DNA from: Escherichia phage 6949
Sequence record: OL362273.1
Direction: 5' to 3' (one strand)
DNA: 44,371 nt
Under the pieces are notes generated by a model, which worked only from the letters and a program-made list of their open reading frames with translations, had not been told where the DNA came from and did no database searches. Each line of letters opens with the position of its first letter. The stretch's first letter is position 1. Positions 2,828 to 43,400 of this stretch are shown piece after piece. The position numbers and the translations under genes are program-made.

Positions 2828-3127
2828 ATGGCTAAATATGGTACTACAGGTTCTGTTACTGGTCAGGCTTTTCGAGTAAAAGCAGTACAAACTATTGCAA
2901 CGGCAATCCCGATGCCTGTTGTTAAAGAAGCAGACCTTAAGAGTAAAGATCACCCTATCAACATCAAACATTTATCAGGTAAACAGAAAGGTGCAATGGT
3001 TGCTCTTGAGAAAGGTGACATAACCTTACATATTGCTGTTGCACGTGGTAGTGAACCCACAGACCCTTGGGATGTAACTGGTATGGAAGAGGAAGCTGTT
3101 ACTCCAGCAGGGAATAATAATGCTTAA
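2828..3127 (+). CDS. Hypothetical protein, tandem paralog B (SGKQKGAMV motif)
   Basis: RBS AAGGAGGAAG precedes the ATG. It is a paralog of the preceding ORF (SGKQKGAMVALEKGDITLHIAVA). Confidence 0.6.
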   Translation: MAKYGTTGSVTGQAFRVKAVQTIATAIPMPVVKEADLKSKDHPINIKHLSGKQKGAMVALEKGDITLHIAVARGSEPTDPWDVTGMEEEAVTPAGNNNA

Positions 3128-3464
3128 TAAATACTTCAAGCGTAAAGAGTTTGCTTGCCGTTGTGGCTGCGGTACATCCACTGTTGATGCTGAATTACTA
3201 CAGGTAGTCACAGATGTGCGTGAGCACTTTGGTTCTCCTGTAGTTATCACTTCTGGGCACCGCTGTGCTAAGCACAATGCTAATGTAGGAGGAGCTAAGA
3301 ACTCCATGCATCTTACTGGTAAGGCTGCTGACATTAAGGTGTCTGGTGTTGGCCCAATGGAGGTGCGTGCATACCTCTGCAATAAATACCATGATAAGTA
3401 TGGTATTGGTGCTTATCCTACTTTTACCCATATCGACGTTAGAGATAACAAAGCAAGATGGTAA
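3120..3464 (+). CDS. Endolysin, peptidase M15-like zinc peptidoglycan peptidase
   Basis: The 114 aa translation carries SGHRC.KHN..VGG...S.H..G.A.D and FTHIDVRD motifs, which fit the H/D/H zinc-binding pattern of M15 family peptidases. It sits in the lysis region. Confidence 0.7.
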   Translation: MLNKYFKRKEFACRCGCGTSTVDAELLQVVTDVREHFGSPVVITSGHRCAKHNANVGGAKNSMHLTGKAADIKVSGVGPMEVRAYLCNKYHDKYGIGAYPTFTHIDVRDNKARW

Positions 3465-4061: not shown

Positions 4062-4140
4062 GTAAGATAGCGCCGTTCTTTTGAGCGGCCTATTACTAGC
4101 CAATCTTCATAGGGAGGGTTGGAAAGTAATAGGAGATAGC

Positions 4141-6039
4141 ATGGCTAAATTAACCAAACCTAATACTGAAGGAATCTTGCATAAAGGACAATCTTTGTAT
4201 GAGTACCTTGATGCGAGAGTTTTAACATCAAAGCCGTTTGGTGCTGCAGGTGACGCCACTACTGATGATACGGAGGTTATAGCTGCTTCATTAAACTCTC
4301 AGAAAGCTGTCACAGTCTCAGATGGTGTATTCTCTAGCTCTGGTATTAATAGTAATTACTGTAATTTAGACGGTAGGGGCAGTGGCGTGCTAAGTCACCG
4401 TTCCAGTACAGGTAACTACTTAGTATTTAACAATCTACGTGCAGGTCGCTTAAGTAATATTACGGTAGAAAGTAATAAGGAGACTGATACAACTCAGGGA
4501 CAGCAGGTATCTCTTGCTGGTGGAAGTGATGTTACTGTAAGTGACGTTAACTTCTCAAACGTTAAAGGTACTGGTTTCAGTTTAATCGCATACCCTAATG
4601 ATGCGCCACCTGATGGACTTATGATTAAAGGCATTCGAGGTAGCTATTCAGGCTATGCTACTAATAAGGCAGCCGGATGCGTACTTGCTGACTCCTCAGT
4701 TAACTCCCTCATAGATAACGTCATTGCTAAGAACTACCCTCAGTTCGGAGCAGTAGAGTTGAAAAGTACAGCCAGTTACAACATAGTCAGTAATGTTATA
4801 GGGGCAGATTGCCAGCATGTAACTTACAACGGCACTGAAGGGCCAATAGCCCCTTCTAATAACCTTATCAAGGGGGTGATGGCTAATAACCCTAAGTATG
4901 CAGCGGTTGTTGCAGGCAAAGGAAGTACGAACTTAATCTCAGACGTGCTCGTAGATTACTCAACTTCTGATGCTAGGCAGGCTCATGGTGTTACCGTAGA
5001 AGGGTCTGATAACGTCATAAATAATGTGCTTATGTCAGGATGTGATGGTACTAACTCTTTAGGACAAGGGCAGACTTCTACAATTGCACGCTTTATAGGT
5101 ACAGCTAATAACAACTATGCGTCTGTATTTCCTAGCTACAGTGCTACAGGTGTTATTACTTTCGAATCCGGCTCTACCCGTAACTTCGTAGAGGTAAAGC
5201 ACCCTGGCAGGAGAAACGACCTTCTCAGTTCTGCTAGTACTATTGACGGTGCAGCTACTATTGACGGCACTAATAATAGTAACGTAGTGCACGCACCTGC
5301 CTTAGGGCAGTACATAGGTAGTATGTCAGGTAGGTTCGAATGGCGGATTAAGTCCATGTCACTCCCTTCAGGAGTTCTTACTTCTGCTGATAAGTACAGA
5401 ATGCTTGGGGATGGTGCTGTATCATTAGCTTTAGGTGGGGGTACTTCTTCTCAAGTTCGCCTATTTACTTCTGATGGTGCTTCTCGGACAGTGTCCCTCA
5501 CCAACGGTAACGTGCGTCTTTCTACCAGTAGCACAGGCTATTTGCAGTTAGGTGCTGATGCAATGACCCCAGATAGTACTGGTACATACGCATTAGGTTC
5601 CGCCAGTCGAGCATGGTCTGGCGGTTTTACTCAAGCAGCATTCACTGTTACCTCAGATGCTCGGTGTAAAACAGAACCTCTTACTATCTCAGATGCCTTA
5701 CTGGATGCTTGGTCTGAAGTTGACTTTGTGCAGTTTCAGTATTTGGATCGTGTTGAGGAGAAGGGTGCAGACTCAGCTAGATGGCACTTCGGTATCATCG
5801 CTCAGCGAGCTAAGGAGGCTTTCGAACGTCACGGTATAGATGCACATCGCTATGGCTTCTTGTGCTTCGACAGTTGGGATGATGTATACGAGGAAGATGC
5901 CAATGGCTCTCGTAAACTGATTACACCAGCAGGTTCCCGCTACGGTATTCGTTACGAGGAAGTACTGATATTAGAGGCTGCGTTGATGCGGAGGACTATC
6001 AAGCGTATGCAGGAAGCACTAGCTTCCCTGCCTAAGTGA
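4141..6039 (+). CDS. Tailspike 1: beta-helix depolymerase with C-terminal intramolecular chaperone (peptidase S74-like) domain
   Basis: ATG 4141 follows RBS AGGAGA; the track start at 4081 is a TTG. The C-terminus carries SDARCK and HFGIIAQRAKEAF motifs, which are typical of auto-cleaving chaperone domains of endosialidase and K5-lyase type tailspikes. A phage promoter lies upstream and a terminator downstream. Confidence 0.8.
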   Translation: MAKLTKPNTEGILHKGQSLYEYLDARVLTSKPFGAAGDATTDDTEVIAASLNSQKAVTVSDGVFSSSGINSNYCNLDGRGSGVLSHRSSTGNYLVFNNLRAGRLSNITVESNKETDTTQGQQVSLAGGSDVTVSDVNFSNVKGTGFSLIAYPNDAPPDGLMIKGIRGSYSGYATNKAAGCVLADSSVNSLIDNVIAKNYPQFGAVELKSTASYNIVSNVIGADCQHVTYNGTEGPIAPSNNLIKGVMANNPKYAAVVAGKGSTNLISDVLVDYSTSDARQAHGVTVEGSDNVINNVLMSGCDGTNSLGQGQTSTIARFIGTANNNYASVFPSYSATGVITFESGSTRNFVEVKHPGRRNDLLSSASTIDGAATIDGTNNSNVVHAPALGQYIGSMSGRFEWRIKSMSLPSGVLTSADKYRMLGDGAVSLALGGGTSSQVRLFTSDGASRTVSLTNGNVRLSTSSTGYLQLGADAMTPDSTGTYALGSASRAWSGGFTQAAFTVTSDARCKTEPLTISDALLDAWSEVDFVQFQYLDRVEEKGADSARWHFGIIAQRAKEAFERHGIDAHRYGFLCFDSWDDVYEEDANGSRKLITPAGSRYGIRYEEVLILEAALMRRTIKRMQEALASLPK

Positions 6040-6124: not shown

Positions 6125-7837
6125 ATGCTTCAAAGATTAAGTGCTTACTTGGTGAAGTACAAGAGTAAACTAACAGGTACTATTGAGCGCCTGCTATCTG
6201 ATAAACTATCGGATACAATAGATGTTGCGGATTTTGGAGTTACTCCATCTTCCAATGACAACAGGCAAGCACTTCAAGCTGCGTTCAATGCAGTCAGAGT
6301 GTTAGGTGGTGGCACTGTATTAGTCACTAAAGCTGGAAAATACAAACTCAGTGGTACTGTTGAGATATTTGCTAATACACACTTCAAGGTTGCTAAAGGT
6401 GTAACATTTGTACGTGACTACGAAACAGGAGATACGCTATTCAGATTATCACAAGGGCAAGCTAGTAATGTAACAGTCAGTGGAGGTATCTATGAAGGCA
6501 ATGGTCACACTAAGGGAGATACACCTTTTGTAGTATTTGCATCTACTAGTAATAATGATTTGAAGTTTGAAGGCATAACAGTTAACAATGTAGTGGACTA
6601 CCACGCCATAGATTTAGCAGATTGGAACAACGTAGTTATTCGTGATTGTAAATTCCTAGGTTTTAAGAATACAGGCAGTCGTAACTTCTCAGAGGCTATA
6701 CAGTTAGACCCAGGTCTTATTACAGTTGGTCACTATGTGCAGTCAAGTGGTATGCTGGTGGAGAATTGCTATGCTGGTCCAAACATAGAATCAGGGTTTG
6801 GAGGTTATGGTGCACTAATTGGAAATCACGCCTCAGCTTACGGTGTACAGGACAACAATATCCGTATCTTGAATTGCACTACAGATGGTGCTCTCTTTGC
6901 AGGTGTACGTGTATTTAACTGGAAAAACTGGACAGTGCGTGGTTGCACATTTAGGAACTCTAATGCAAGAGGTGTCCATGTTACACCTGTCTCATCTCAG
7001 ACTAAACCGCAGGGTACTCGACAAGGTAATATTGTAGATTGCACTTTTGATGGCGTAAGGACACCAGTGCTAATTGCTGCACCATCTTGGCCTTTTACCG
7101 ATATTAGTGACATTTGGCATGACCATATTGAAATTTCTAATAATACTATGATCCTCACAGAGGATGTATCCTATGGTGTAGATGCAAGGTGGTGTAAGAA
7201 TTTAATTGTAAAAGGTAATACAGGCTCTGGTGGCTTAGGGTTAATAGGTTTACGCTTTGGGACAAAATACCACATCGAAGGTAATACTTGGGAAAACGGA
7301 AGAGGTAGTGGGATTTGGTTAGGTGAGTCTGATGCTACTACATTCATTGGTACTGGTTTATCAGGAGAAGGTATACTTAGTCGTAATATCTTCTCTAAAT
7401 TAGGGCAATATGGTATTCATGTAAACTGCAAGGCTAGCGGTCTAGTGATTAAAGCCAATAATATGAAGGAAGTATCTACAGATGAAGCAGGTAGGCACTT
7501 CATTAGTATAAACACAGGGGCTAACAACATCCTAGTAGAAGGTAATATTGGAGTAGACGGAGAAAGCCCTAACAAGCCAAGCCTTGGTATTCGTGTTACT
7601 TCTTCTTGTTCCAATATTAAACTCATTGGCAATGATTGCTATGGCACACAGGCGCCTCAGAATAACCAAGGAGTTGGTTCTAGTACGGTGATTGTTTATG
7701 GACTAAATGGCAACCCTACAACTTTAGGCGTAGGTGCACCTGTAGGCTCTTTAGCAACTGATATCAATGGTTCTGGTGGTAGTACATTGTACGTTAAAGA
7801 ATCTGGTACATCTGCTCAAGGTTGGGTTGCAAAGTAG
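6125..7837 (+). CDS. Tailspike 2: pectate-lyase-like right-handed beta-helix depolymerase
   Basis: RBS GAGGAGG precedes ATG 6125. The 570 aa protein has repetitive beta-helix coils (NNVVIRDCKF, IRILNCTTDG, WTVRGCTF, NIVDCTFDG, IKLIGNDCYG) and no C-terminal chaperone domain. Confidence 0.75.
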   Translation: MLQRLSAYLVKYKSKLTGTIERLLSDKLSDTIDVADFGVTPSSNDNRQALQAAFNAVRVLGGGTVLVTKAGKYKLSGTVEIFANTHFKVAKGVTFVRDYETGDTLFRLSQGQASNVTVSGGIYEGNGHTKGDTPFVVFASTSNNDLKFEGITVNNVVDYHAIDLADWNNVVIRDCKFLGFKNTGSRNFSEAIQLDPGLITVGHYVQSSGMLVENCYAGPNIESGFGGYGALIGNHASAYGVQDNNIRILNCTTDGALFAGVRVFNWKNWTVRGCTFRNSNARGVHVTPVSSQTKPQGTRQGNIVDCTFDGVRTPVLIAAPSWPFTDISDIWHDHIEISNNTMILTEDVSYGVDARWCKNLIVKGNTGSGGLGLIGLRFGTKYHIEGNTWENGRGSGIWLGESDATTFIGTGLSGEGILSRNIFSKLGQYGIHVNCKASGLVIKANNMKEVSTDEAGRHFISINTGANNILVEGNIGVDGESPNKPSLGIRVTSSCSNIKLIGNDCYGTQAPQNNQGVGSSTVIVYGLNGNPTTLGVGAPVGSLATDINGSGGSTLYVKESGTSAQGWVAK

Positions 7838-27967: not shown

Positions 27968-28442
27968 TCCAAATTATCGAAAACCACCTCGTACACCGCC
28001 AAGACCACTTGCCTACTGTCCTTTTACTGGAAAGCTTTTCCGTAAGTTCAAAGATGGCTGGAGAGAAACAGGACTTAGCAGAAAGAGTGATGGATATTTA
28101 CAGTATAAAGTCGATGGTAAGACTGTAAGTGTTCATGTTTTAGCAATGAATATGATGGGTTATGACACTACCGGCTTTACAGTAGATCACATAAATCATA
28201 TACGCTGGGATAATAGGTTTATTAATCTACGTCTACTATCTCATAAAGATAATTGTTTAAATAGAGAGGCGATACATACAAGTAAGCTGCCGAGTGGTAA
28301 CTACAGAGCGCGATGTGGAAATGTTCATCTTGGCGTATTTGAGGATAAGTTACTTGCTCGTGGTGCTATCCTATGGTATCGCCATAGGAGATTTAATAAT
28401 GTTAAATTCAATGAAGGCAACGCGTGCCGTAGAAGTAGCTGA
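27957..28442 (+). CDS. HNH homing endonuclease
   Basis: The motif SVHVLAMNMMGYDTTGFTVDHINHIRWDNRFINLRLLSHKDN is an HNH signature. The ORF overlaps both neighbours, as a compact insertion would. Confidence 0.8.
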   Translation: MSSNPNYRKPPRTPPRPLAYCPFTGKLFRKFKDGWRETGLSRKSDGYLQYKVDGKTVSVHVLAMNMMGYDTTGFTVDHINHIRWDNRFINLRLLSHKDNCLNREAIHTSKLPSGNYRARCGNVHLGVFEDKLLARGAILWYRHRRFNNVKFNEGNACRRSS

Positions 28443-28593
28443 AGCTATATTTGAAACTTTATCCTGTGGCATGGAAGTGCCATATACTTTACTGGCTGAT
28501 GCAGAAGAACTTGGTCTTTCTGTAGAAGCTATCCAAGAGAAGGTTGACGAATTATATGGTACAGACGAAGAAGAAACCGACGATTTCATTTGA
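28399..28593 (+). CDS. Small acidic hypothetical protein (64 aa)
   Basis: RBS AGGAG lies 8 nt upstream of ATG 28399. The C-terminus is acidic (EEETDDFI). The 5' end overlaps the HNH gene. Confidence 0.45.
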   Translation: MLNSMKATRAVEVAEAIFETLSCGMEVPYTLLADAEELGLSVEAIQEKVDELYGTDEEETDDFI

Positions 28594-28597
28594 AGGA

Positions 28598-28726
28598 ATG
28601 GAGATGCTTGAGATGATTCTCAAGCCTTCTTCTCCTAAGGTGACTAAGACTCATGAAGAGTTAATCGTTGATGAGGTTAAGCGTTACATCATGGATTGTG
28701 TCAGAGCACAACTGGTGATCCAATGA
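28598..28726 (+). CDS. Small hypothetical ORF (start uncertain)
   Basis: Several in-frame ATGs (28598, 28604, 28613) lie near a GAAGGA/GGAG RBS. The stop overlaps the GNAT start (ATGA). Confidence 0.3.
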   Translation: MEMLEMILKPSSPKVTKTHEELIVDEVKRYIMDCVRAQLVIQ

Positions 28727-29184
28727 TACGTCCAGCTTCCTTCCTAGATATTCCTGAGATTATAAACCTTGGGAATAAATATGTGGAAGAGGAAGTCAAG
28801 GTTGTAGCCCACCACTCAGCCTCATGGAATGCAGAACAAAGTGCACATAACCTTTGTGCATCTCTTAGTAGAGAAGATTTATTCCTATGGGTTGCTGTAG
28901 ATGAAGGGCAGATTGTAGGGTTCCTGTGGGCTGGCTATCACGAGTTGGCCCCTTGGACACCTGTAAGAGTTGCCTCTGACATTCTCTTTTATATTATACC
29001 AGAGAGGCGAGGAACACTTCTTGGTATGCGTCTCATCAAAGCCCTAAAGCAATGGGCTAGTGATAATGAATGCTCTGAGGTTCGCCTGTCTATCGCCTCT
29101 GGTATTAATGAAGAACGTGTCGGACGTATGTATAAGCGACTTGGCTTTGAACCGTTTGGCACTGTGTATAACATGAAGTTCTAA
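28723..29184 (+). CDS. GNAT family N-acetyltransferase
   Basis: The acetyl-CoA binding motif A is present (QIVGFLWAG ... RRGTLLGMRLIKALKQWA), followed by the RLGFEP motif. ATG 28723 is coupled to the upstream stop. Confidence 0.72.
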   Translation: MIRPASFLDIPEIINLGNKYVEEEVKVVAHHSASWNAEQSAHNLCASLSREDLFLWVAVDEGQIVGFLWAGYHELAPWTPVRVASDILFYIIPERRGTLLGMRLIKALKQWASDNECSEVRLSIASGINEERVGRMYKRLGFEPFGTVYNMKF

Positions 29185-29193
29185 GGAGATAAC

Positions 29194-29403
29194 ATGGGTG
29201 TTGTAAAGAAAGCATTTAAGGCTATCGGTCTTGCTCAAGATGCACCACGTATTGAAGCCAAAGTACCAGCACAGCAGCTTGAGCGTAAGCCTGAGACTGA
29301 AGCTGAAGATATTCAAATTGGTGCAGGTGGTGATGATGCGACTGCATCTGCAAAAGGTAAGCGCGGCCTTGTCCGTCCGGTAGCTTCTAGCTTGAAGGTG
29401 TAA
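29194..29403 (+). CDS. Small Gly/Ala-rich protein upstream of portal (possible minor virion protein)
   Basis: RBS AAGGAG precedes the ATG. It is position-equivalent to the small head proteins of T7 (the 6.7/7.3 region). The assignment is by position only. Confidence 0.45.
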   Translation: MGVVKKAFKAIGLAQDAPRIEAKVPAQQLERKPETEAEDIQIGAGGDDATASAKGKRGLVRPVASSLKV

Positions 29404-29404
29404 T

Positions 29405-30955
29405 ATGAAACAGAGCACAGATTTGGAGTATGGAGGTAAGCGGTCTAAGATACCTAAGCTATGGGAGAAATTCTCCACTAAACGTAGCTCTTTCCTTGAT
29501 AGGGCGAAGCATTACTCCAAATTAACCTTGCCCTATCTGATGAATGACAAAGGTGATAACGAGACTTCGCAGAATGGATGGCAAGGTGTAGGTGCTCAGG
29601 CAACCAACCATCTAGCCAACAAGCTAGCGCAAGTACTATTCCCTGCACAGCGTTCCTTCTTCCGTGTAGACTTAACTGCACAAGGTGAGAAGGTTCTTAA
29701 TCAGCGTGGCCTGAAGAAGACAGAGCTAGCTACCATCTTCGCTCAAGTGGAAACACGGGCAATGAAAGAGTTAGAGCAACGTCAATTCCGACCTGCTGTA
29801 GTAGAAGCATTTAAGCATCTTATTGTTGCTGGCAGCTGTATGCTATACAAGCCGAGCAAAGGTGCAATCAGTGCTATCCCAATGCATCACTACGTAGTTA
29901 ACCGTGATACCAATGGCGACCTGTTAGACATTATCTTGCTACAAGAGAAAGCCTTACGTACCTTTGACCCAGCTACACGTGCTGTAGTAGAGGTTGGCCT
30001 GAAAGGTAAGAAGTGCAAAGAAGATGACAGCGTTAAGCTGTACACACATGCTAAGTATCTTGGTGATGGATTTTGGGAACTCAAGCAATCTGCTGATGAT
30101 ATCCCTGTGGGTAAGGTGAGTAAAATCAAATCAGAAAAGCTACCTTTCATCCCATTAACTTGGAAGCGAAGCTATGGTGAGGATTGGGGTCGCCCTCTTG
30201 CAGAGGATTACTCCGGTGATTTATTCGTTATCCAATTCTTATCTGAAGCGGTTGCCCGTGGTGCTGCGCTGATGGCAGATATCAAGTACCTGATTCGTCC
30301 GGGTGCTCAAACTGATGTTGACCACTTTGTTAACTCTGGCACTGGTGAGGTTATCACTGGTGTAGAAGAAGACATCCATATTGTACAGTTAGGTAAGTAT
30401 GCAGATCTCACACCCATTAGCGCGGTTCTAGAGGTATACACTCGCCGTATCGGTGTTGTCTTCATGATGGAGACAATGACACGCCGTGACGCCGAACGTG
30501 TTACTGCTGTAGAAATCCAGCGAGATGCGTTAGAGATTGAGCAGAACATGGGTGGTGTATACTCCCTCTTTGCTACTACTATGCAATCGCCAGTAGCGAT
30601 GTGGGGTCTGCTGGAGGCAGGGGAGTCCTTCACTAGTGACCTAGTGGACCCTGTGATTATCACAGGTATTGAAGCTTTAGGACGCATGGCTGAGTTGGAT
30701 AAACTGGCTAACTTTGCTCAGTATATGTCACTGCCATTACAATGGCCTGAGCCTGTCCTAGCTGCTGTGAAATGGCCTGACTATATGGATTGGGTGCGTG
30801 GTCAAATCTCTGCTGAACTGCCGTTCCTTAAATCAGCTGAAGAGATGGCACAAGAACAGGAAGCACAGATGCAAGCACAGCAAGCACAGATGCTTGAAGA
30901 AGGTGTGGCTAAGGCCGTGCCGGGTGTAATTCAACAAGAACTTAAGGAGGCGTAA
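29405..30955 (+). CDS. Head-tail connector (portal) protein (T7 gp8-like)
   Basis: A 516 aa ORF in the gp8 position, immediately upstream of scaffold and capsid. Its C-terminus is acidic and Gln-rich. Confidence 0.88.
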   Translation: MKQSTDLEYGGKRSKIPKLWEKFSTKRSSFLDRAKHYSKLTLPYLMNDKGDNETSQNGWQGVGAQATNHLANKLAQVLFPAQRSFFRVDLTAQGEKVLNQRGLKKTELATIFAQVETRAMKELEQRQFRPAVVEAFKHLIVAGSCMLYKPSKGAISAIPMHHYVVNRDTNGDLLDIILLQEKALRTFDPATRAVVEVGLKGKKCKEDDSVKLYTHAKYLGDGFWELKQSADDIPVGKVSKIKSEKLPFIPLTWKRSYGEDWGRPLAEDYSGDLFVIQFLSEAVARGAALMADIKYLIRPGAQTDVDHFVNSGTGEVITGVEEDIHIVQLGKYADLTPISAVLEVYTRRIGVVFMMETMTRRDAERVTAVEIQRDALEIEQNMGGVYSLFATTMQSPVAMWGLLEAGESFTSDLVDPVIITGIEALGRMAELDKLANFAQYMSLPLQWPEPVLAAVKWPDYMDWVRGQISAELPFLKSAEEMAQEQEAQMQAQQAQMLEEGVAKAVPGVIQQELKEA

Positions 30956-31875
30956 TGTCTTTCTCATTTACTGAACCGTCAACCACTCACCCTACTACTG
31001 AAGAGGGTCCGGTAGAAACCAAGGAGGTAACAACTGATGCTGCTACTACTGATGCTACTGCTGACGCTGGCACTGCTGTACAAGATGACAATGCTGGTGC
31101 ACAACCTACTGAAGACACCGGAGGAGAAGCTTCTGGACAGCCTTCAGAAAAAGGAGACAATGGCGGAGAGAATGGTGAATCTAAGCCAGATGATACCGCG
31201 ACCGACACTGAGGAAGTGCAATACTTCTTCGGAGAACATGAAGTAACAATAGACATCCCACAGGATGTAACTGACAGCCTTAAAGAGAAAGGCATTGATG
31301 CCAAGCAGGTTGCCAAGGAACTATATTCCAAAGGTGGCAAGTTTGAACTGTCAGATGCAACCAAGCAGAAATTGTATGATGCTTTTGGCAAGTTTGCGGT
31401 AGATGCTTACCTGTCAGGTCTTAAGGCTCAAAATGAAGCCTTCTTCCTGAAAGAAGCCAACGCAGCTAAAGAGTTGGAAGCAGCTAACACCCAACGCTTC
31501 TCTGATGTTTCTAAGGAAATTGGTGGCGAAGAAGGTTGGTCCCGTCTTGAGGAGTGGGCGCTTGAAACGCTATCCGATGACGAACTCACGGCATTCAATG
31601 CTGTGATGGAGTCTGGCAACCAGTACCTCCAGCAGTACGCTGTGCGTGAACTGGAGAGCCGCCGTAAGGCTGCACAGGGTGATGATAGGCCATCCCTGAT
31701 TGAGCCATCAGCACCTGCTAAGGCTAATGAAGAGAATGGCCCACTGACGCGAGATCAGTACGTTCAAGCAATCGCAACTCTTAGCCAGAAGTACGGCAAT
31801 GACCGTAAAGCTATGGCAGAAGCTCAGGCTAAACTGGACGCCCGTCGCCGTGCTGGCATGGCTCGCGGTATCTAA
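30955..31875 (+). CDS. Capsid assembly scaffolding protein (T7 gp9-like)
   Basis: A highly acidic, low-complexity N-terminal half and a helical C-terminal half, lying between portal and capsid. RBS AAGGAGG precedes the ATG. Confidence 0.75.
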   Translation: MSFSFTEPSTTHPTTEEGPVETKEVTTDAATTDATADAGTAVQDDNAGAQPTEDTGGEASGQPSEKGDNGGENGESKPDDTATDTEEVQYFFGEHEVTIDIPQDVTDSLKEKGIDAKQVAKELYSKGGKFELSDATKQKLYDAFGKFAVDAYLSGLKAQNEAFFLKEANAAKELEAANTQRFSDVSKEIGGEEGWSRLEEWALETLSDDELTAFNAVMESGNQYLQQYAVRELESRRKAAQGDDRPSLIEPSAPAKANEENGPLTRDQYVQAIATLSQKYGNDRKAMAEAQAKLDARRRAGMARGI

Positions 31876-33955: not shown

Positions 33956-36357
33956 TGGAAGTACAAGGTTCATTAGGTAGACAAATCCAAGGGATTAGCC
34001 AGCAGCCGCCAGCGGTACGCTTGGATGGTCAGTGCACAGCTATGGTTAATATGATACCTGATGTAGTGAATGGTACTCAATCACGCATGGGTACAACTCA
34101 TATTGCAAAGATACTTGATGCGGGGACTGATGACATGGCTACCCATCATTATCGCAGAGGTGATGGTGATGAAGAGTATTTCTTCACGTTGAAGAAAGGA
34201 CAAGTTCCTGAGATATTTGATAAGTATGGGCGCAAATGTAATGTGACTTCACAAGATGCACCTATGACCTACCTCTCTGAGGTTGTTAATCCAAGGGAAG
34301 ATGTGCAATTCATGACGATAGCTGATGTTACTTTCATGCTTAATCGTAGGAAAGTAGTTAAAGCTAGTAGCAGTAAGTCACCTAAAGTTGGAAACAAAGC
34401 CATTGTGTTTTGTGCGTATGGTCAATATGGTACATCTTATTCCATTGTAATTAATGGGGCCAACGCTGCTAGTTTTAAAACACCGGATGGTGGAAGTGCA
34501 GACCATGTTGAACAAATTCGAACTGAACGTATCACTTCTGAATTGTACTCTAAGTTGCAGCAATGGAGCGGTGTGAGTGACTATGAAATACAAAGAGACG
34601 GTACTAGTATATTTATCGAGAGACGGGATGGTGCTAGCTTTACAATAACAACCACCGATGGTGCAAAAGGTAAGGACTTAGTGGCTATCAAGAATAAAGT
34701 TAGCTCTACTGACCTACTCCCTTCTCGTGCGCCTGCTGGTTATAAAGTACAAGTGTGGCCTACTGGCAGCAAACCTGAGTCTCGTTACTGGCTGCAAGCT
34801 GAGCCTAAAGAGGGAAACCTTGTGTCTTGGAAAGAAACAATAGCTGCTGATGTATTACTTGGGTTTGATAAAGGCACAATGCCTTACATTATTGAACGTA
34901 CAGATATCATCAACGGCATAGCTCAATTCAAGATAAGACAAGGTGATTGGGAAGATCGTAAAGTAGGGGATGACTTGACTAACCCTATGCCCTCTTTTAT
35001 TGATGAGGAAGTACCCCAGACAATAGGTGGAATGTTCATGGTGCAGAACCGCCTATGCTTTACAGCAGGTGAAGCGGTTATTGCTTCTCGTACATCCTAC
35101 TTCTTCGATTTCTTTCGTTATACGGTTATCTCTGCATTGGCAACTGACTCCTTTGATATTTTCTCAGATGCTAGTGAAGTCTACCAGCTAAAACATGCAG
35201 TGACCTTAGATGGCGCTACCGTGTTGTTCTCTGATAAGTCACAATTCATACTGCCAGGCGATAAGCCTTTAGAGAAGTCAAATGCACTGCTTAAGCCTGT
35301 TACAACATTTGAAGTGAACAATAAAGTGAAGCCAGTAGTAACTGGTGAATCGGTAATGTTTGCCACTAATGATGGTTCTTACTCTGGTGTACGAGAGTTC
35401 TATACAGACTCTTATAGTGACACTAAGAAGGCACAAGCAATCACAAGTCATGTGAATAAACTCATCGAAGGTAACATTACCAACATGGCAGCAAGCACCA
35501 ATGTCAACAGGTTACTTGTCACTACCGATAAGTATCGTAACATAATCTACTGCTACGATTGGTTATGGCAAGGAACAGACCGTGTACAATCAGCATGGCA
35601 TGTATGGAAGTGGCCTATAGGTACAAAGGTGCGAGGTATGTTTTATTCTGGTGAATTACTTTACCTGCTCCTTGAGCGAGGAGATGGCGTGTATCTGGAG
35701 AAGATGGACATGGGTGATGCACTAACCTATGGTTTGAATGGCCGCATCAGAATGGATAGGCAAGCAGAGTTAGTCTTCAAGCATTTCAAAGCAGAAGATG
35801 AATGGGTATCTGAGCCGCTCCCTTGGGTTCCTACTAACCCAGAACTTTTAGATTGCATCTTAATCGAGGGTTGGGATTCATATATTGGCGGCTCTTTCTT
35901 ATTCAAGTACAACCCTAGTGACAATACTTTGTCTACAACCTTTGATATATATGATGACAGCCATGTAAAAGCGAAGGTTATTGTTGGTCAGATTTACCCT
36001 CAAGAGTTTGAACCTACGCCTGTGGTTATCAGAGACAATCAAGACCGTGTATCCTACATTGATGTACCAGTTGTAGGATTGGTTCACCTTAATCTTGACA
36101 TGTACCCCGATTTCTCCGTAGAAGTTAAGAATGTGAAGAGTGGTAAAGTACGTAGAGTATTAGCGTCAAACCGTATAGGTGGTGCTCTCAATAATACAGT
36201 AGGCTATGTTGAACCGAGAGAAGGTGTCTTCAGATTTCCACTGAGAGCTAAGAGCATGGATGTTGTTTATCGTATTATTGTAGAGTCACCTCACACATTC
36301 CAGCTTCGTGATATTGAGTGGGAAGGGAGCTACAATCCAACCAAAAGGAGGGTCTAA
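33955..36357 (+). CDS. Tail tubular protein B (T7 gp12-like)
   Basis: The N-terminus LGRQIQGISQQPPAVRLDGQ carries the GISQQP motif seen in T7 gp12. The size is about 800 aa. Confidence 0.85.
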   Translation: MEVQGSLGRQIQGISQQPPAVRLDGQCTAMVNMIPDVVNGTQSRMGTTHIAKILDAGTDDMATHHYRRGDGDEEYFFTLKKGQVPEIFDKYGRKCNVTSQDAPMTYLSEVVNPREDVQFMTIADVTFMLNRRKVVKASSSKSPKVGNKAIVFCAYGQYGTSYSIVINGANAASFKTPDGGSADHVEQIRTERITSELYSKLQQWSGVSDYEIQRDGTSIFIERRDGASFTITTTDGAKGKDLVAIKNKVSSTDLLPSRAPAGYKVQVWPTGSKPESRYWLQAEPKEGNLVSWKETIAADVLLGFDKGTMPYIIERTDIINGIAQFKIRQGDWEDRKVGDDLTNPMPSFIDEEVPQTIGGMFMVQNRLCFTAGEAVIASRTSYFFDFFRYTVISALATDSFDIFSDASEVYQLKHAVTLDGATVLFSDKSQFILPGDKPLEKSNALLKPVTTFEVNNKVKPVVTGESVMFATNDGSYSGVREFYTDSYSDTKKAQAITSHVNKLIEGNITNMAASTNVNRLLVTTDKYRNIIYCYDWLWQGTDRVQSAWHVWKWPIGTKVRGMFYSGELLYLLLERGDGVYLEKMDMGDALTYGLNGRIRMDRQAELVFKHFKAEDEWVSEPLPWVPTNPELLDCILIEGWDSYIGGSFLFKYNPSDNTLSTTFDIYDDSHVKAKVIVGQIYPQEFEPTPVVIRDNQDRVSYIDVPVVGLVHLNLDMYPDFSVEVKNVKSGKVRRVLASNRIGGALNNTVGYVEPREGVFRFPLRAKSMDVVYRIIVESPHTFQLRDIEWEGSYNPTKRRV

Positions 36358-37079
36358 TGGCTATAGGTTCAGCCGTTATGGCTGGTATGTCTTCTATTGG
36401 TAGCATGTTTGCAGGCAGTGGTGCAGCAGCCGCTGCTGGAGGTGCTGCCGCAGGTGGCGGAGGTTTGCTAGGTTCACTAGGTGGATTCCTAAGTGGCTCT
36501 ACTGCTGGTTTCTCTAATGCTGGCCTTCTTGGTGCTGGCCTTCAAGGGTTAGGCTTGATTGGTGATCTATTTGGTGGAAGTGATGAAGCCAAGGCGATGA
36601 AGAAAGCACAAGAAGAGCAATGGCGGCAGCAGCTTATTGCTACACAAGAGGCGTACAAGACAGTGGCAGACGCAGAACGTTCTGCTGCTAAACAATATCA
36701 TGCAGATGCAATCAGTAATCAGGCTTCACTGCTACAGCAGCGAGCACAGGTTGCATTACTTGCTGGGGCTACTGGTACTGGTGGTAATTCTGTGTCCTCT
36801 ATGCTTAATGACTTAGCAGCAGATGGCGGCAGGAACCAGAGTACTATCATTGATAACTATGAGAATCAGAAGATTAATTTCACCAACCAGCTTAAGTCTA
36901 TCCAACGTGGTGGTCAGATGCAGATGCGTGAGTTTAAGAAGCCTTCTGCTATGAATACCTTGGTTAAAGGTATTCCAAGTCTGGCATCTGCCTATGTAAC
37001 TGGTAGTAAGTCTGGCAAGGCATTGGGTAAAGTCTTAACTGATTCTCGCACATATTCATCTGGAACAAGAGGTATTTAA
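36357..37079 (+). CDS. Internal virion protein (small, Gly-rich N-terminus)
   Basis: RBS AAGGAGGG precedes the ATG, which is coupled through TAATG. The protein has a Gly/Ala-rich N-terminus and a helical C-terminal half. Confidence 0.65.
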   Translation: MAIGSAVMAGMSSIGSMFAGSGAAAAAGGAAAGGGGLLGSLGGFLSGSTAGFSNAGLLGAGLQGLGLIGDLFGGSDEAKAMKKAQEEQWRQQLIATQEAYKTVADAERSAAKQYHADAISNQASLLQQRAQVALLAGATGTGGNSVSSMLNDLAADGGRNQSTIIDNYENQKINFTNQLKSIQRGGQMQMREFKKPSAMNTLVKGIPSLASAYVTGSKSGKALGKVLTDSRTYSSGTRGI

Positions 37080-40027
37080 TGGCAATTGAGCGACAAGCAG
37101 TACAAGGTCTGCCACAAGTGCAGGCCACTTCTCCTAATGTCATGACCTTTGCACCTCAACAAGTGGGAGGTGTGGAGGCTGGCGTGGCTTCTACCTCCGG
37201 TAGTAGGTTTATCGAAGACCTTATTCGTGCAGCAAGCAGCGTGGCTGATGTTACCACTGGTATCCTTAATCAGAAGATTGAGGAAGATAAGGTTGTTCAA
37301 ATGGAACGGGCATATAACGGATTAATGCCTTCTGAGGATGCAACTCGTGGTGGCGCTCGTGCTAACATGCTTGTCAAAGCTCAACTGCTAGCTAATGATG
37401 AAGCAGCACGAATGAAAGACATGGCTACTCGTTTCCAAGGAACGGATGACGAATGGACACAACTTATGGTTGACTCTCGTAATGAGATGCAGAATAAGCT
37501 GTTCCAGCAATACCCTGAGTTGCAAGGTGACAAAGATACTATGCGTATGGTCACTAATGTCTTCCAAGAACAGCAGCCTCAGATTTGGGCTACACGAACC
37601 CAGCATAAACTTGACCGTGAACAAGCAGACCGTGAGGATACCTTTGACGGGCGAGTGGCTTCTACTTGGGATTCTAATATTGACCCTGAAGCCTCTGGCT
37701 ATGCTTTACAGGAACGAATCCGCGAAGGTCTTACTCAAGGATTACTACCTGAACAGATGCACAAGAAGTTAGTCCAGCGAGCAATTTCACTTGCACAAGG
37801 CGGTGATGTTAGCATGGCTGAAGCCCTGAAGTATGTGAAGGACGATAAGGGTGTTTCTGTTTATGCTAAGAATCCACAGCTTATCACAGCCATCACTAGT
37901 GGTAATGCAGTTTGGGCTAGGAATAATGTAGCTGATGTAACTCGTATGTCTTTCGAAGTTAAAGAATCCTACCTTGCAGGTGATTTAACTGATGAAGAAC
38001 TGTTGGAACGAGCACAGCACATTAATAATCTGACAGGTAACTCTGTCTTCTCTAATCCAGAGCTAGAGGCACTGATGCGCCAACGGGCTAAGCAGAATGC
38101 AGAGCTAGGTGCAATGCAGGATATGCGACGTGAGCTTTACTCTGACCGCCTGACTGGCTTCCAAGGTAAGACTGATAAAGAGAAGAAGGCTTACATTGAT
38201 GTTATCAAACAGGATAGCCAACTTTATGCAGACCAGCAAATCAAACAACGTGGCTTGGACCCTTACAGTCAAGAGGCTGAAGCTATTCGTGGTGCAGTGG
38301 AAGTGCAGCGCCTGCAATTCATGAACTCCAAAGGCTTAGTGGATGATACCTTTGAGTCTCGTATCAAAGCCATGGAATCTATGCTATCGCCTGAGCACTT
38401 TGCCAAGGGCGAACCACAGGAGTTGATGACTATTCGCCAGTTGTGGGAACAGTTGCCAGAAGAGAGCCGAGGTGTCTTTGGTGACACGGTGAATGGCTAC
38501 ATGGATAACTACAACACTGCACTACAAATGGGAGAGACACCTTTGCAGGCTGCAAGGTTTGCGCGTGAAGCACAGCAGAAATTCTCTCGTACTGAGAAGG
38601 AAACCAAGAAGTTCAACTCAGCTATTGGAGATGCACTGGATGAGGTATCTGGTGCTGGCTGGTTTGATGGTAAAACCGAAGTGTCAGACTTAGGTAAAGC
38701 TATTGCGGAAGAAGAGTTACGAGCTAAGGCCAATATGTTGTGGTCTAGTGGTATGCGTAACATGGATTCTATCAAGAGGGCTTTAATTACTTGGGGCAAT
38801 AAACGCTACACTCAAACAGAGGATGCAAAGACTTCCGGTGGCTATTTCATTAAAGGTGATTACACTTCTGCATCTGATATGCTTATGTCAGTTGGGAAAG
38901 GCGTAAACCCTACCGATGTACCTCTTGCGCTTGGTAGGTATGTAGAAACACAGATGCCAGAATTGAAGAAGGAGCTTCAAGAGTGGGAAACTAAAGATGA
39001 TATATACATTGATTACAATGAACAGAAAGGTACTTTCGTGATTCGTGCTGGTGCAGCAGGTCGCCCTCTTTCTGGAGTAATCCCTGTAACCTCTTTAGAT
39101 ACCACTTCACTACTAGATTCTGCCTATCAGAAGAAAGTAGAGGAACGAGATAAAGGCGAGTATGTTCACCCTTATCGTACAGATATTGGTGCACAAGAGC
39201 CTATGCCAGCTAAACCAACTGCCAAAGATATTGGTAAATTTGGACTAGCTAACTTCCTCATGTCTTCTGCTTTTGCTTCTGGTGAGAATCTGCCTTCTAA
39301 CTTCGAGATTAACTATCGAGGTAATATGCAACAATTCTATGACAAGCTAGCTATGGATGAGAATAAAGATAAAGTTGGCTTTAATAAGGCAACTGGAACC
39401 TTTACTCCATATAAAGATGCTCACGGTGAGTCTATCGGTTACGGTCATTTCTTAACGGAAGAAGAGAAGCGAAACGGGTATATTAAGATTGGTGATGAAC
39501 TAGTTCCCTATCGAGGGTCTATGTCTCAGCTTACAGAGAGCAAGGCTCGCGCTCTTATGGAGCAAGATGCCAAGAAGCATGTGCCTCCTACTCGTGACTG
39601 GAAGATTCCGTTTGACCAGATGCATCCTGCACAGCAACGTGGCTTGATGGATTTAACCTACAATTTAGGTAAAGGTGGAATCCAGAACTCACCGCGTGCT
39701 CTTGCTGCATTCAAAGCTGGTAAGCTTACGGAAGGCTTTATCGAAATGCTGGGCACTGCATCAAGTGAAGGTAAGCGTATCCATGGTTTACTGAAGCGAC
39801 GCGCTGAGGCATACAATATGGCATCTGCTGGTGGTGTGCCTAAGATTACCGAAGTGGAGACTCGTGAAGATGGCTCCATGTGGGTTAGGTTTGGTGGACC
39901 TATGCCAGCAGGTTCTGTCTCGGCATGGACTCATAAACGTATTGGCGCGGATGGTTGGTATCAGGTTTATGAGGCTGCACCTACCAAGTTAGCTAAAGGT
40001 TCTAAGGTGGGTAAATTTAAGTTGTAG
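37079..40027 (+). CDS. Internal virion (ejection) protein with C-terminal lysozyme-like peptidoglycan hydrolase domain
   Basis: A 982 aa ORF in the internal-protein block. The C-terminal region has YKDAHGESIGYGHFLTEEE, which resembles the T4 lysozyme core (YKDTEGYYTIGIGHLLT). Confidence 0.75.
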   Translation: MAIERQAVQGLPQVQATSPNVMTFAPQQVGGVEAGVASTSGSRFIEDLIRAASSVADVTTGILNQKIEEDKVVQMERAYNGLMPSEDATRGGARANMLVKAQLLANDEAARMKDMATRFQGTDDEWTQLMVDSRNEMQNKLFQQYPELQGDKDTMRMVTNVFQEQQPQIWATRTQHKLDREQADREDTFDGRVASTWDSNIDPEASGYALQERIREGLTQGLLPEQMHKKLVQRAISLAQGGDVSMAEALKYVKDDKGVSVYAKNPQLITAITSGNAVWARNNVADVTRMSFEVKESYLAGDLTDEELLERAQHINNLTGNSVFSNPELEALMRQRAKQNAELGAMQDMRRELYSDRLTGFQGKTDKEKKAYIDVIKQDSQLYADQQIKQRGLDPYSQEAEAIRGAVEVQRLQFMNSKGLVDDTFESRIKAMESMLSPEHFAKGEPQELMTIRQLWEQLPEESRGVFGDTVNGYMDNYNTALQMGETPLQAARFAREAQQKFSRTEKETKKFNSAIGDALDEVSGAGWFDGKTEVSDLGKAIAEEELRAKANMLWSSGMRNMDSIKRALITWGNKRYTQTEDAKTSGGYFIKGDYTSASDMLMSVGKGVNPTDVPLALGRYVETQMPELKKELQEWETKDDIYIDYNEQKGTFVIRAGAAGRPLSGVIPVTSLDTTSLLDSAYQKKVEERDKGEYVHPYRTDIGAQEPMPAKPTAKDIGKFGLANFLMSSAFASGENLPSNFEINYRGNMQQFYDKLAMDENKDKVGFNKATGTFTPYKDAHGESIGYGHFLTEEEKRNGYIKIGDELVPYRGSMSQLTESKARALMEQDAKKHVPPTRDWKIPFDQMHPAQQRGLMDLTYNLGKGGIQNSPRALAAFKAGKLTEGFIEMLGTASSEGKRIHGLLKRRAEAYNMASAGGVPKITEVETREDGSMWVRFGGPMPAGSVSAWTHKRIGADGWYQVYEAAPTKLAKGSKVGKFKL

Positions 40028-40091: not shown

Positions 40092-43000
40092 ATGGAACAA
40101 GACATTAAGACTAATTGGGCTGGATATGTCCAGTCTACTCCTGAGCCGTTTTCTATTGAGGCGGCTCCGGTATCGGCTCCTACGATACGCCAGCGTAATG
40201 AGTTACAAGAGCAAGTTCTTGAAGCTAAAGCTGATGCTGATATCTTAGGTGCTGTAGGTGCTGCCTTCCAGAATGAGTGGTTGGCATTCGGAGGCAAGCG
40301 GTGGTATGACCGTGCCACTGCTGATTTCACACCTCAACCAGACTTCGAGATACAACCTGAGCAACGTGAAGCACTACGTTTCAAATATGGTACAGATATG
40401 ATGCAGACAATCACTGAGGGTGTTCGTTCTGAGGATGAATTGAACTTCCGTATTCAGAATGCTGATGAAGACCTTGAGCGCAATAAGCGCATTGCTCGGG
40501 CTGGCTGGGTTGGCTCTGTGGCGACGATTGGCGCTGCTGTGCTTGACCCTGTGGGATGGGTTGCCTCTATTCCAACCGGTGGTGCCGCTAAAGTTGGACT
40601 CGTAGGCCGTGCTGTGCGTGGCGCTATCGCCGCTGGCGTAAGTAATGCCGCTATTGAATCCGTATTGGTCCAAGGTGACATGACTCGTGATTTAGATGAC
40701 ATTATGGTAGCACTAGGCGCCGGTATGGCTATGGGTGGCGTTATTGGAGCTGTAGCGCGTGGTAGGGCCACTAAGCTCAGTGAGCAAGGAGATGACAGGG
40801 CTGCGAGCATTGTGCGCAGTGCAGACGCAGGGGACCGCTATGTGCGTGCTGTTGCTGATGATAGTATCGGTGCGATGCGTGTTAAGGGTGAAGAGGTACT
40901 CACTGAGGGTGCATTTGATATCTCTAGCAAAGGTGAAGATTTGCTGAAAACCCTACAGCGGGAAGGTAATGCAATTGATATGACCCCTCGCCGCTGGGCC
41001 GGAACTCTGTCTGCCCTTGGTACTGTCGTACATTCCTCTCAGGATGCAAGTGTACGCGGCCTTGGTGCTCGCCTGTTTGAGTCCCCCCAAGGCTTAGGTA
41101 TGCAGAAGGCATCTGCTAGTCTCATGCAGAATACTAACTTGAACCGTCTGAAATCTGCTGATATGAATCGTTTCAACGATGGGTTCGATTTATGGCTCAA
41201 AGAGAATAATATCAATCCGGTTGCAGGTCATACTAACTCTCACTATGTGCAGCAATATAATGAGAAGGTATGGGAAGCTGTACGCATCGGTATGGATGAG
41301 TCTACGCCTAAGTCTATCCGTATGGCAGCAGAGGGGCAGCAAGCTATGTATCGTGAAGCATTAGCATTACGTCAACGCTCTGGTGAATCTGGGTTTGAAA
41401 AGGTTAAAGCAGATGATAAGTACATGCCTGATATTTTTGACAGTATGAAGGCTCGTCGTCAATTCAGTATGCACGATAAAGAGGACATCATTGAGTTATT
41501 CTCTCGTGCATACCAGAATGGTTCTCGTAAGGTTCCAAAGGAAGTGGCTGATGATATTGCACGAGCACAAGTAAACCGCGTTGCTGATGCCACCTTGACC
41601 GGACAGCTTAGCTTTGAAAAGGCTATGTCTGGTCAAACCAAAGCAGAATATGAAGCACTAATGCGCAAAGCAGGCTTTAGTGATGAAGAGATTGAAAAGA
41701 TGGTAGAAGCTCTGGATAATAAAGAAACCAGAGATAATATCTCTAACCGAGCTAAGATGAGTTTAGGCTTAGATGTTACTCAAGAGTACAATGGCATTCG
41801 TATGCGTGACTTTATGAACACTAACGTGGAAGAGTTAACAGATAACTACATGAAGGAAGCGGCAGGTGGTGCTGCCTTGGCTCGTCAAGGCTTCTCTACC
41901 TATCAGGCTGCACTTAATGCAATTGATCTTGTAGAGCGAAATGCACGAAATGCAGCTAAAGATACAAAAGCACACGCACAATTTGAAGCGGAGTCGGCTA
42001 AGATCCGTCAATCAGAGCCTGATTACAAGAAGGCACAAGAGAAGATTGAAGAGTTAAAGAAGCGACTTAAATTGAAAGAGAAAGATGAAGCAGCTGGTCT
42101 GGCTATTGATGAAGAAATCCGTCAGATGCGAGAAGGGCTTCGCTTGATTATGGGTAAATCTATCGATTCAAACCCACAAGATTTGTCTACTAAAATGCTG
42201 CGTCGTGGGCGTGACATTACAGGTGTACTTCGCTTAGGTCAGATGGGCTTCGCACAGCTAGGTGAACTTGCTAACTTCATGGGTGAGTTTGGTATTGCTG
42301 CCACCACTATGGCTTTAGGTAAGCAATTCCGCTTCACCTCTAAGGCGTTGCGTAATGGCGATGGCTTCTTTCGAGATAAGAATTTAGCTGAGGTTGAGCG
42401 AATGGTAGGTTACATTGGTGAAGACAACTGGCTGACAACTAAGGGTGCGCGTCCCGATGAGTTTGGTGATGTAACCACAGTGCGAGGTATGATGGCCCAT
42501 TTTGACCAGTCCATGAACTCTATACGACGTGCTCAGACAAACCTATCCCTCTTCCGCATGGCACAGGGTTCTCTGGAGCGAATGACCAATAGGCAAATAG
42601 CTTTGTCTTTCATTGACCACCTTGAAGGCAAGAAGATTATTCCTCAGAAGAAACTGGAGGAACTTGGTCTTACTCAGGAGTTCATGACTAACCTACAGAA
42701 GCACTATGATGCTAACTCTAAAGGTTCTGGCTTGCTTGGCTTTGATACAATGCCTTATGCCATGGGTGAAACTTTAGCTAATGCTATTCGTCGTAAGTCA
42801 GGTCTAATTATCCAACGTAACTTCATTGGTGATGAAGGTATCTGGATGAACAAAGCACTAGGTAAGACATTTGCACAGCTTAAGTCATTCTCTCTTGTAT
42901 CTGGTGAGAAGCAATTTGGTCGAGGGATTCGCCACGATAAAATTGGTCTTGCTAAGAAGACAGCTTATGGTTTTGCTTTGGGTTCAATAGTGTATGCGGC

Positions 43001-43400
43001 AAAAGCCTATGTTAACTCTATTGGTCGAGAAGACCAAGATGAATATTTGGAAGAGAAGTTATCGCCTAAAGGGTTGGCCTTTGGTGCAATGGGTATGATG
43101 AGTACAACTGCTGTATTTAGTCTAGGTGGAGATTTCTTAGGTGGCCTAGGTGTTCTACCTTCTGAGTTAGTACAATCCCGTTATGAGGCTGGCTTTCAGA
43201 CTAAGGGTTTGATAGACCAAATACCACTAGTAGGTGTTGGTCAAGATGCATATCGTTTAGCAGATTCTATAACTAAATACGCAGAGGGCGATACAGAAGG
43301 TGTAGATGTGGCACGTAGGGCTTTACGCTTAGTGCCTCTAGCTAATGTAATAGGAATCCAGAACGCATTGCGTTATGGCTTAGATGAACTGGAGGATTAA
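40092..43400 (+). CDS. Internal virion (ejection) protein, largest core protein (T7 gp16 position)
   Basis: A 1102 aa ORF with RBS GGAGGA, last of the internal-protein block before the tail adaptor. Confidence 0.75.
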   Translation: MEQDIKTNWAGYVQSTPEPFSIEAAPVSAPTIRQRNELQEQVLEAKADADILGAVGAAFQNEWLAFGGKRWYDRATADFTPQPDFEIQPEQREALRFKYGTDMMQTITEGVRSEDELNFRIQNADEDLERNKRIARAGWVGSVATIGAAVLDPVGWVASIPTGGAAKVGLVGRAVRGAIAAGVSNAAIESVLVQGDMTRDLDDIMVALGAGMAMGGVIGAVARGRATKLSEQGDDRAASIVRSADAGDRYVRAVADDSIGAMRVKGEEVLTEGAFDISSKGEDLLKTLQREGNAIDMTPRRWAGTLSALGTVVHSSQDASVRGLGARLFESPQGLGMQKASASLMQNTNLNRLKSADMNRFNDGFDLWLKENNINPVAGHTNSHYVQQYNEKVWEAVRIGMDESTPKSIRMAAEGQQAMYREALALRQRSGESGFEKVKADDKYMPDIFDSMKARRQFSMHDKEDIIELFSRAYQNGSRKVPKEVADDIARAQVNRVADATLTGQLSFEKAMSGQTKAEYEALMRKAGFSDEEIEKMVEALDNKETRDNISNRAKMSLGLDVTQEYNGIRMRDFMNTNVEELTDNYMKEAAGGAALARQGFSTYQAALNAIDLVERNARNAAKDTKAHAQFEAESAKIRQSEPDYKKAQEKIEELKKRLKLKEKDEAAGLAIDEEIRQMREGLRLIMGKSIDSNPQDLSTKMLRRGRDITGVLRLGQMGFAQLGELANFMGEFGIAATTMALGKQFRFTSKALRNGDGFFRDKNLAEVERMVGYIGEDNWLTTKGARPDEFGDVTTVRGMMAHFDQSMNSIRRAQTNLSLFRMAQGSLERMTNRQIALSFIDHLEGKKIIPQKKLEELGLTQEFMTNLQKHYDANSKGSGLLGFDTMPYAMGETLANAIRRKSGLIIQRNFIGDEGIWMNKALGKTFAQLKSFSLVSGEKQFGRGIRHDKIGLAKKTAYGFALGSIVYAAKAYVNSIGREDQDEYLEEKLSPKGLAFGAMGMMSTTAVFSLGGDFLGGLGVLPSELVQSRYEAGFQTKGLIDQIPLVGVGQDAYRLADSITKYAEGDTEGVDVARRALRLVPLANVIGIQNALRYGLDELED

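Follow-up and report, generated by a model that had tools for sequence, protein, structure and literature searches.

Which protein of a K1-5-like podovirus carries the enzyme that opens the cell wall for incoming DNA, and is that enzyme intact? The question is raised by a 44,371-nucleotide (nt) stretch of DNA from Escherichia phage 6949 (sequence record OL362273.1; this whole stretch is referred to below as the window). It encodes a 982-residue internal virion protein, gp35, near whose C-terminus an initial annotation, made from the sequence alone, had seen a likeness to the active-site region of T4 lysozyme (T4L). We find it highly probable that this segment is an active muramidase of glycoside hydrolase family 24 (GH24), fused to the C-terminus of the ejection protein found in the position of T7 gp15; that it is active is taken from the literature on relatives. 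What the present analysis adds is evidence from homology, from the predicted fold, from the conservation of residues, from the neighboring genes, and from the near-identity of the protein to K1-5 gp35.

The GH24 domain of gp35

The window is approximately the complete genome of a Vectrevirus (K1-5/K1E-like; Autographiviridae, Molineuxvirinae), circularly permuted in comparison with the K1-5 record. A megablast search with the 2949-nt open reading frame (ORF) of gp35 matched 64 phage records, namely K1-5, K1E, and other Vectrevirus phages, each with at least 80% coverage and 90-99.7% identity. The protein is identical to K1-5 gp35 (YP_654136.1) at 973 of 982 positions (99.2% identity at the DNA level), and the 9 substitutions leave Glu761, Asp780, and Ser785 unchanged. 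In the K1-5 RefSeq record, the matching gene (28049-30997) is labeled “lysozyme domain-containing protein” and lies between gene 34 (“internal virion protein”) and gene 36; the PHROGs family phrog_4290, which bears the same label, covers the whole of gp35 (E=0). The gene and its parts are as follows.

37079..40027, plus strand: gp35-type internal virion (ejection) protein in the gp15 (“periplasmic tunnel”) position, with a C-terminal lysozyme (ORF list, K1-5 identity, phrog_4290)
37079..39178, plus strand: gp15-like body, about residues 1-700, without a recognized domain; the boundary is approximate (negative Pfam and PDB searches, homology to contig L010, see below)
39296..39823, plus strand: predicted GH24 (T4-lysozyme-type) muramidase domain, about residues 740-915 (sequence and predicted fold)
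39359..39361, plus strand: codon (GAG) of Glu761, which closes the first helix on its C-terminal side and is the putative catalytic acid (conservation, predicted helix, codon check)
39362..39406, plus strand: residues 762-776, NKDKVGFNKATGTFT, inserted after this Glu and before the YKD strand when compared with the T4L and P22 enzymes (alignments)
39407..39466, plus strand: motif PYKDAHGESIGYGHFLTEEE, residues 777-796, with Asp780 (39416-39418) and Ser785 (39431-39433) (alignments, codon check)
39827..40024, plus strand: conserved beta-rich C-terminal domain of about 65 residues, residues 917-982 (AlphaFold2 model, family alignment)

A minus-strand ORF at 39658-39879 (73 residues) was rejected, as every K1-5 gene is on the plus strand of the aligned genome and nothing supports this ORF.

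The resemblance to T4 lysozyme is real. The Pfam family Phage_lysozyme (PF00959, GH24) matches residues 776-910 of gp35 with E=5e-10 and 40.2 bits, against a gathering cutoff of 22.3. A phmmer search of PDB sequences with the whole protein returned only T4-lysozyme-type chains, pairing residue 777 with T4L residue 17, and a profile of 17 family members matched GH24 lysozymes at 1.4e-8 and the lysozyme domain of T4 gp5 at 4e-5. In the HMMER alignments to T4L, Asp780 corresponds to Asp20 and Ser785 to Thr26. Outside the lysozyme, gp35 has no match in the Pfam scan (residues 1-775) and none among PDB sequences by phmmer.

Structure prediction, the check proposed in the initial annotation, gave the T4-lysozyme type. 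A first AlphaFold2 (AF2) model, built from 8 sequences and starting at residue 716, had a predicted local distance difference test (pLDDT) score below 50 over its first 74 residues, including Glu761, and weak Foldseek E-values; the model used here was rebuilt from a trimmed, deeper alignment. In this model, the N-terminal helix begins near residue 740 (nt 39296), the YKD and ES motifs fall in the two strands that follow this helix, and the two-lobed lysozyme fold ends near residue 915 (nt 39823). The predicted fold matches those of the true endolysins P22 gp19, R21, and RrrD. Judged by sequence and predicted structure, then, this domain at the C-terminal end of gp35 is of the GH24/T4-lysozyme type. 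The initial annotation had placed it at 39340-39860 (residues 754-928), which is right as to location, but not as to the exact limits, the domain being slightly wider and starting near residue 740.

A different chemistry within the same general design, that of a lytic transglycosylase like lambda R in place of a hydrolase, has in its favor that T7 employs a transglycosylase for the same step (PMC8954989) and that the reaction cannot be read from the sequence alone; we regard it as improbable.

The displaced putative catalytic glutamate

The initial annotation correctly noted that the catalytic Glu is not where a simple alignment puts it. All supported local alignments begin at T4L residue 16-17, and their ungapped extension sets Ala771 opposite T4L Glu11. 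Farther upstream, the sequence MDEN (residues 759-762) resembles the IDEG of T4L, and both MAFFT and hhalign with the -glob option pair Glu761 with T4L Glu11 through a gap of about 10 residues.

Homologs of the domain were collected in several ways. Protein homology searches, first with the C-terminal 265 residues and afterward with an alignment as the query, recovered 7 and 12 proteins and missed the full-length orthologs, so homologs were taken from a tblastn search of 50,697 phage genomes and from a representative protein library. A HMMER search of 1.8 billion representative proteins yielded 295 homologs at E<=0.001, the best 150 of which were examined. All 17 family members keep Glu761, even those of a group with just ~25% identity, and among the best 150 of the 295 homologs, Glu occupies this position in 64 of the 69 that align there, extending to proteins of about 25-30% identity. 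In the same set, Asn comes next after the Glu in 61 of 70, with a conserved Gly five residues past the Asn. The first helix of the AF2 model (residues 740-761) has Glu761 as its very last residue, just as Glu11 closes helix A of T4L, and short extra strands are predicted within the insertion that follows (residues 762-776). Glu761 and Asp780 are 19 residues apart, compared with 9 for Glu11 and Asp20 of T4L. The distance from the Glu to the glycine of the GYGH motif is 28 residues in gp35, 28-39 in its homologs, and 19 in T4L; the spacing is long in the homologs too, and the insertion is therefore typical of the whole GH24 subfamily, not a lesion.

Several observations weigh against assigning the catalytic role to Glu761. 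Local profile alignments (phmmer, hhalign with default settings, and hmmsearch against PDB) never reach this residue; hhalign with -mact 0 pairs T4L Glu11, as well as the corresponding Glu of P22 lysozyme, with Thr772; and AF2 confidence around residues 756-765 is moderate (block pLDDT 64). The forced hhalign alignments conflict, with -glob leading to Glu761 and -mact 0 to Thr772, and the -glob alignment with the P22 enzyme is nonsensical. Because the forced alignments disagree and the local ones stop short, the assignment draws on conservation and predicted secondary structure rather than on a scored alignment. On these grounds, Glu761 is very likely, though not proven to be, the counterpart of T4L Glu11.

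The same uncertainty bears on the possibility of a degenerate, catalytically dead lysozyme fold that the ejectosome would keep for structural reasons or for binding peptidoglycan. It would account for the absence of a partner for T4L Glu11 from every statistically supported local alignment, for the one extended alignment that puts Thr772 in its place, and for the predominance of Ser over Asp at position 780 in aligned homologs (56 versus 42). A dead site, however, is not expected to keep a Glu that is invariant or nearly so down to about 25-30% identity, and gp35 retains Asp780 and Ser785 as well. Moreover, the K1-5 ortholog, with 9 differences in 982 residues and none of them at these three positions, and SP6 gp36 are named as virion-associated lysozymes in reviews (PMC5380687, PMC8954989). 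We therefore consider a dead fold highly improbable. The initial annotation had suggested a divergent or inactive domain; divergence holds, in the form of the ~10-residue insertion, while inactivity is unlikely given the conserved Glu761, the aligned Asp780 and Ser785, and the relatives listed in the reviews. By its sequence, the domain is divergent, not degenerate.

Distant homologs share a subfamily signature that corresponds to window positions 39359-39448 (residues 761-790) and reads EN-x4-G ... [YH]-K-[DS]-x2-G-x-[TS]-[IV]-[GA]-Y-G-H. Where homologs have Ser at position 780, Asp mostly takes the place of Glu784 (34 cases), a hint that the second acidic residue may have shifted in this group.

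Gene neighborhood and time of action

The order of genes around gp35 is as follows: nozzle protein (PF25675), gp14 family (PF24072), gp35, gp16-like protein (phrog_342), and a T7-type tail fiber N-terminal adaptor. Thus, gp35 is found downstream of the nozzle gene and between the gp14- and gp16-family genes, which is the placement of T7 gp15. Speaking against our reading of the carrier, no similarity to T7 gp15 was detected in residues 1-735 of gp35 (phmmer, full protein against all PDB sequences, E<=1); for this reason, the basis of the label “gp15-like” is the position of the gene together with the literature. The neighboring genes and the lysis enzyme are listed here.

36318..37079, plus strand: gp14-family internal virion protein (PF24072 T7_gp14, E=2.2e-32; phrog_805)
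40092..43400, plus strand: gp16-like internal virion protein, 1102 residues (phrog_342, E=4e-245; the alignment begins at position 162 of the 1235 in the profile)
3120..3464, plus strand: endolysin, 114 residues, Peptidase_M15_3 (PF08291, E=3.1e-33)

In the gp16 homolog of the window, no SLT-type transglycosylase was found in the first ~160 residues: the phrog_342 match begins only at profile position 162, and the Pfam scan gave no match. This protein therefore lacks the ~160-residue transglycosylase part of T7 gp16, which agrees with the earlier suggestion that the GH24-type domain sits on a core protein other than the one that bears the wall-cutting enzyme in T7, here gp35 in the gp15 position.

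A use of the domain mainly late in infection, as a second endolysin supplied by unassembled gp35 and not at entry, could be argued from the fold that it shares with P22 gp19, R21, and RrrD and from the assignment of the phrog_4290 family to the PHROGs category “lysis.” But the phage has a lysis cassette of its own, with the M15 endolysin at 3120-3464 and with a holin and a spanin as in K1-5, where the annotation of this region lists an endolysin, holins, and a spanin. The GH24 domain, for its part, carries no separate signal or signal-arrest-release (SAR) sequence, belongs to the polypeptide chain of a 109-kDa virion protein encoded between the gp14 and gp16 homologs, and is classed in the literature as a virion-associated lysin (PMC8954989, PMC5380687). 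Given the separate cassette with its M15 endolysin, the gp35 lysozyme would therefore be the entry enzyme and not the lysis enzyme, and a chiefly late role appears very unlikely. Since the endolysin belongs to Peptidase_M15_3 whereas the gp35 domain is a lysozyme, these wall enzymes cut different bonds.

For the gp35 lysozyme as an entry enzyme, we infer the following order of ejection events and catalytic roles. The protein would be packaged in the internal capsid core alongside the gp14-like and gp16-like proteins and, upon infection, would leave through the tail. During assembly of the trans-envelope channel, its lysozyme domain would cut peptidoglycan locally, allowing the channel to reach the inner membrane, and would thereby do the job that in T7 falls to the N-terminal transglycosylase of gp16, a part missing from the gp16 homolog of the window. 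The putative catalytic set would consist of Glu761 as the acid and of Asp780 and Ser785 as the counterparts of T4L Asp20 and Thr26.

Some further features of the neighborhood are recorded here. The gp14-family ORF opens at a GTG within the nozzle gene and encodes 253 residues, compared with 240 in the K1-5 product; the 9030-nt coordinate offset from K1-5 sets its start near window position 36357, and the longer start at 36318 is probably not used. The gp16-like protein (1102 residues, as in K1E) is 41 residues longer than K1-5 gp36 (1061 residues), and in the comparison with SP6 gp37 the gap lies opposite residues 628-668, which are rich in Lys and Glu. SP6 gp37 has an internal insertion of ~210 residues and is likewise without a transglycosylase domain. 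Its “endolysin domain” label is only the name of a PHROG family, and a second transglycosylase on this protein was rejected, also in view of the lack of a Pfam match and the internal location of the extra residues. Elsewhere in the window are two putative tailspike genes, one (4081-6039, 652 residues) with a C-terminal Peptidase_S74 chaperone domain and the other (6125-7837, 570 residues) with a right-handed beta-helix. They are 97.6-98.8% identical to phages EEc2, 6948, Sem1-4, and Vectrevirus LI10P3/LI10P5 and differ in size from K1-5 gp46/gp47, so the capsule specificity of this phage probably differs from that of K1-5.

Relation to known virion lysozymes

The gp35 lysozyme is already known: work of 2004-2007 on K1-5, K1E, and SP6 described the protein, its domain, and the virion-associated activity against the cell wall. 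It is for these K1-5/K1E/SP6-type phages, not for the phage studied here, that the literature reports muralysis by the virion protein and assigns this protein to the ejectosome. The activity of the virion protein appears to have been tested some twenty years ago, with a positive outcome as cited by reviews. The work by Moak and Molineux from 2004 was reportedly a zymogram-based study. Table 2 in the review by Latka et al. (PMC5380687) lists K1-5 YP_654136.1 (109 kDa) and SP6 gp36 (107 kDa) as virion-associated lysozymes, citing Moak and Molineux 2004. Swanson et al. (PMC8954989) state that gp35 of K1E and K1-5 holds the lysozyme activity that T7 carries on gp16, and group K1E gp35 among the gp15-like proteins; the similarity of the SP6 gp36 C-terminus to lysozyme is mentioned in PMC4837284. 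A recent study (bioRxiv 10.64898/2026.05.18.726046) reports by cryo-electron microscopy a T4-lysozyme-like domain on the tunnel protein of the phiKMV-like phage Ar-KM and, among 127 Autographivirales, finds the enzyme at the N-terminus of the gp16-like protein in 86, at the C-terminus of the gp15-like protein in 31, and in the middle of the gp15-like protein in 10.

The closest counterparts of the window protein are gp35 of K1-5 and K1E, which represent the same 982-residue protein with the same neighbors; as a phage, K1-5 differs from the window in its tailspike genes and in the 41-residue indel in gp36. The C-terminal module of SP6 gp36 is 63% identical and has the same EN...YKD...GYGH pattern, as well as the same C-terminal beta domain. 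The same layout, with a C-terminal T4-lysozyme-like domain on the protein between the gp14-like and gp16-like ones, is found in phiKMV gp36 (domain gp36C) and Ar-KM gp42. However, the BLASTP match between gp36C and the window domain spans only 15 residues (YKDA.G.S.G.GH.L), with a YKDAxGxSxGxGH motif common to both, and no homology beyond the general GH24 motif was found in this comparison; nor was any Pseudomonas phage present among the named matches of the tblastn search described above. In the phiKMV domain, Glu and Asp are spaced by the canonical 9 residues, the C-terminal end is T4L-like, and nothing corresponds to the beta domain; in the window, the domain contains the insertion, ends in a P22/R21-like GLLKRR sequence, and is followed by the additional beta domain. 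The arrangement is thus the same, but the GH24 subtype is different, and, to judge from these sequences, the same carrier probably acquired its lysozyme in two separate fusion events.

T7 gp16 performs the same task, local cleavage of peptidoglycan by an ejected core protein so that the DNA channel crosses the periplasm, but with an SLT-type transglycosylase (Glu37) at its N-terminus, as opposed to a GH24 domain at the C-terminus of the gp15-position carrier. With T4 gp5 and T4 lysozyme (gpe), the window domain has in common the fold of GH24 enzymes and the Asp/Thr(Ser) motif. Like gp35, gp5 is a virion-borne entry lysozyme, but it is part of the baseplate spike on a contractile tail rather than of an internal core.

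The C-terminal beta domain and a stand-alone module

The beta domain that follows the lysozyme (residues 917-982) has no match in the Pfam scan. Its strands are predicted with AF2 pLDDT values of ~90 or above. Fused and stand-alone homologs alike conserve the domain, in which G959-W960 does not vary, and it may serve in docking or in binding to the wall.

The stand-alone form is found in two metagenome contigs of ~44 kb each, from uncultured relatives, L010 (8001-9131) and L011 (509-1639), where the lysozyme and the beta module together constitute a separate 376-residue gene product. This gene sits between genes for a 724-residue protein in the gp15 position and a 1324-residue protein in the gp16 position. 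The N-terminal 180 residues of gp35 are 28% identical to the 724-residue protein of L010 (E=9e-13), which ends where residue ~700 of gp35 lies and whose terminal segment, of the ...KGT.R...P.PLSEI type, has its counterpart near gp35 residues 650-673. This homology and the shared end segment argue for viewing gp35 as a gp15-like body of ~700 residues fused to a lysozyme module of ~250 residues. The split arrangement, which is not among the three placements described in bioRxiv 10.64898/2026.05.18.726046, suggests fusion or fission of the gene for this module. It is tempting, if rather speculative, to view the lysozyme with the EN insertion and the 65-residue beta domain as a dedicated, mobile “ejectosome lysozyme” module.

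Implications

The arrangement analyzed here is textbook for the K1-5-like phage group, which the initial annotation had missed, and, being already catalogued across Autographivirales, carries little weight as a discovery. The outcome is a clean annotation, that of a GH24 domain whose likely catalytic residue, Glu761, is displaced by an insertion typical of its subfamily, and the suspicion that the domain is inactive can be dropped. If the tentative view of a mobile module is true, some podoviruses would have four ejection proteins, and gp35 of the K1-5/SP6 type would be a gene fusion, in which the beta domain could dock the enzyme onto the tunnel; the identity of the domain in the window would be unaffected. 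The module in gp35 illustrates the movement of the wall-cutting function among ejection proteins.

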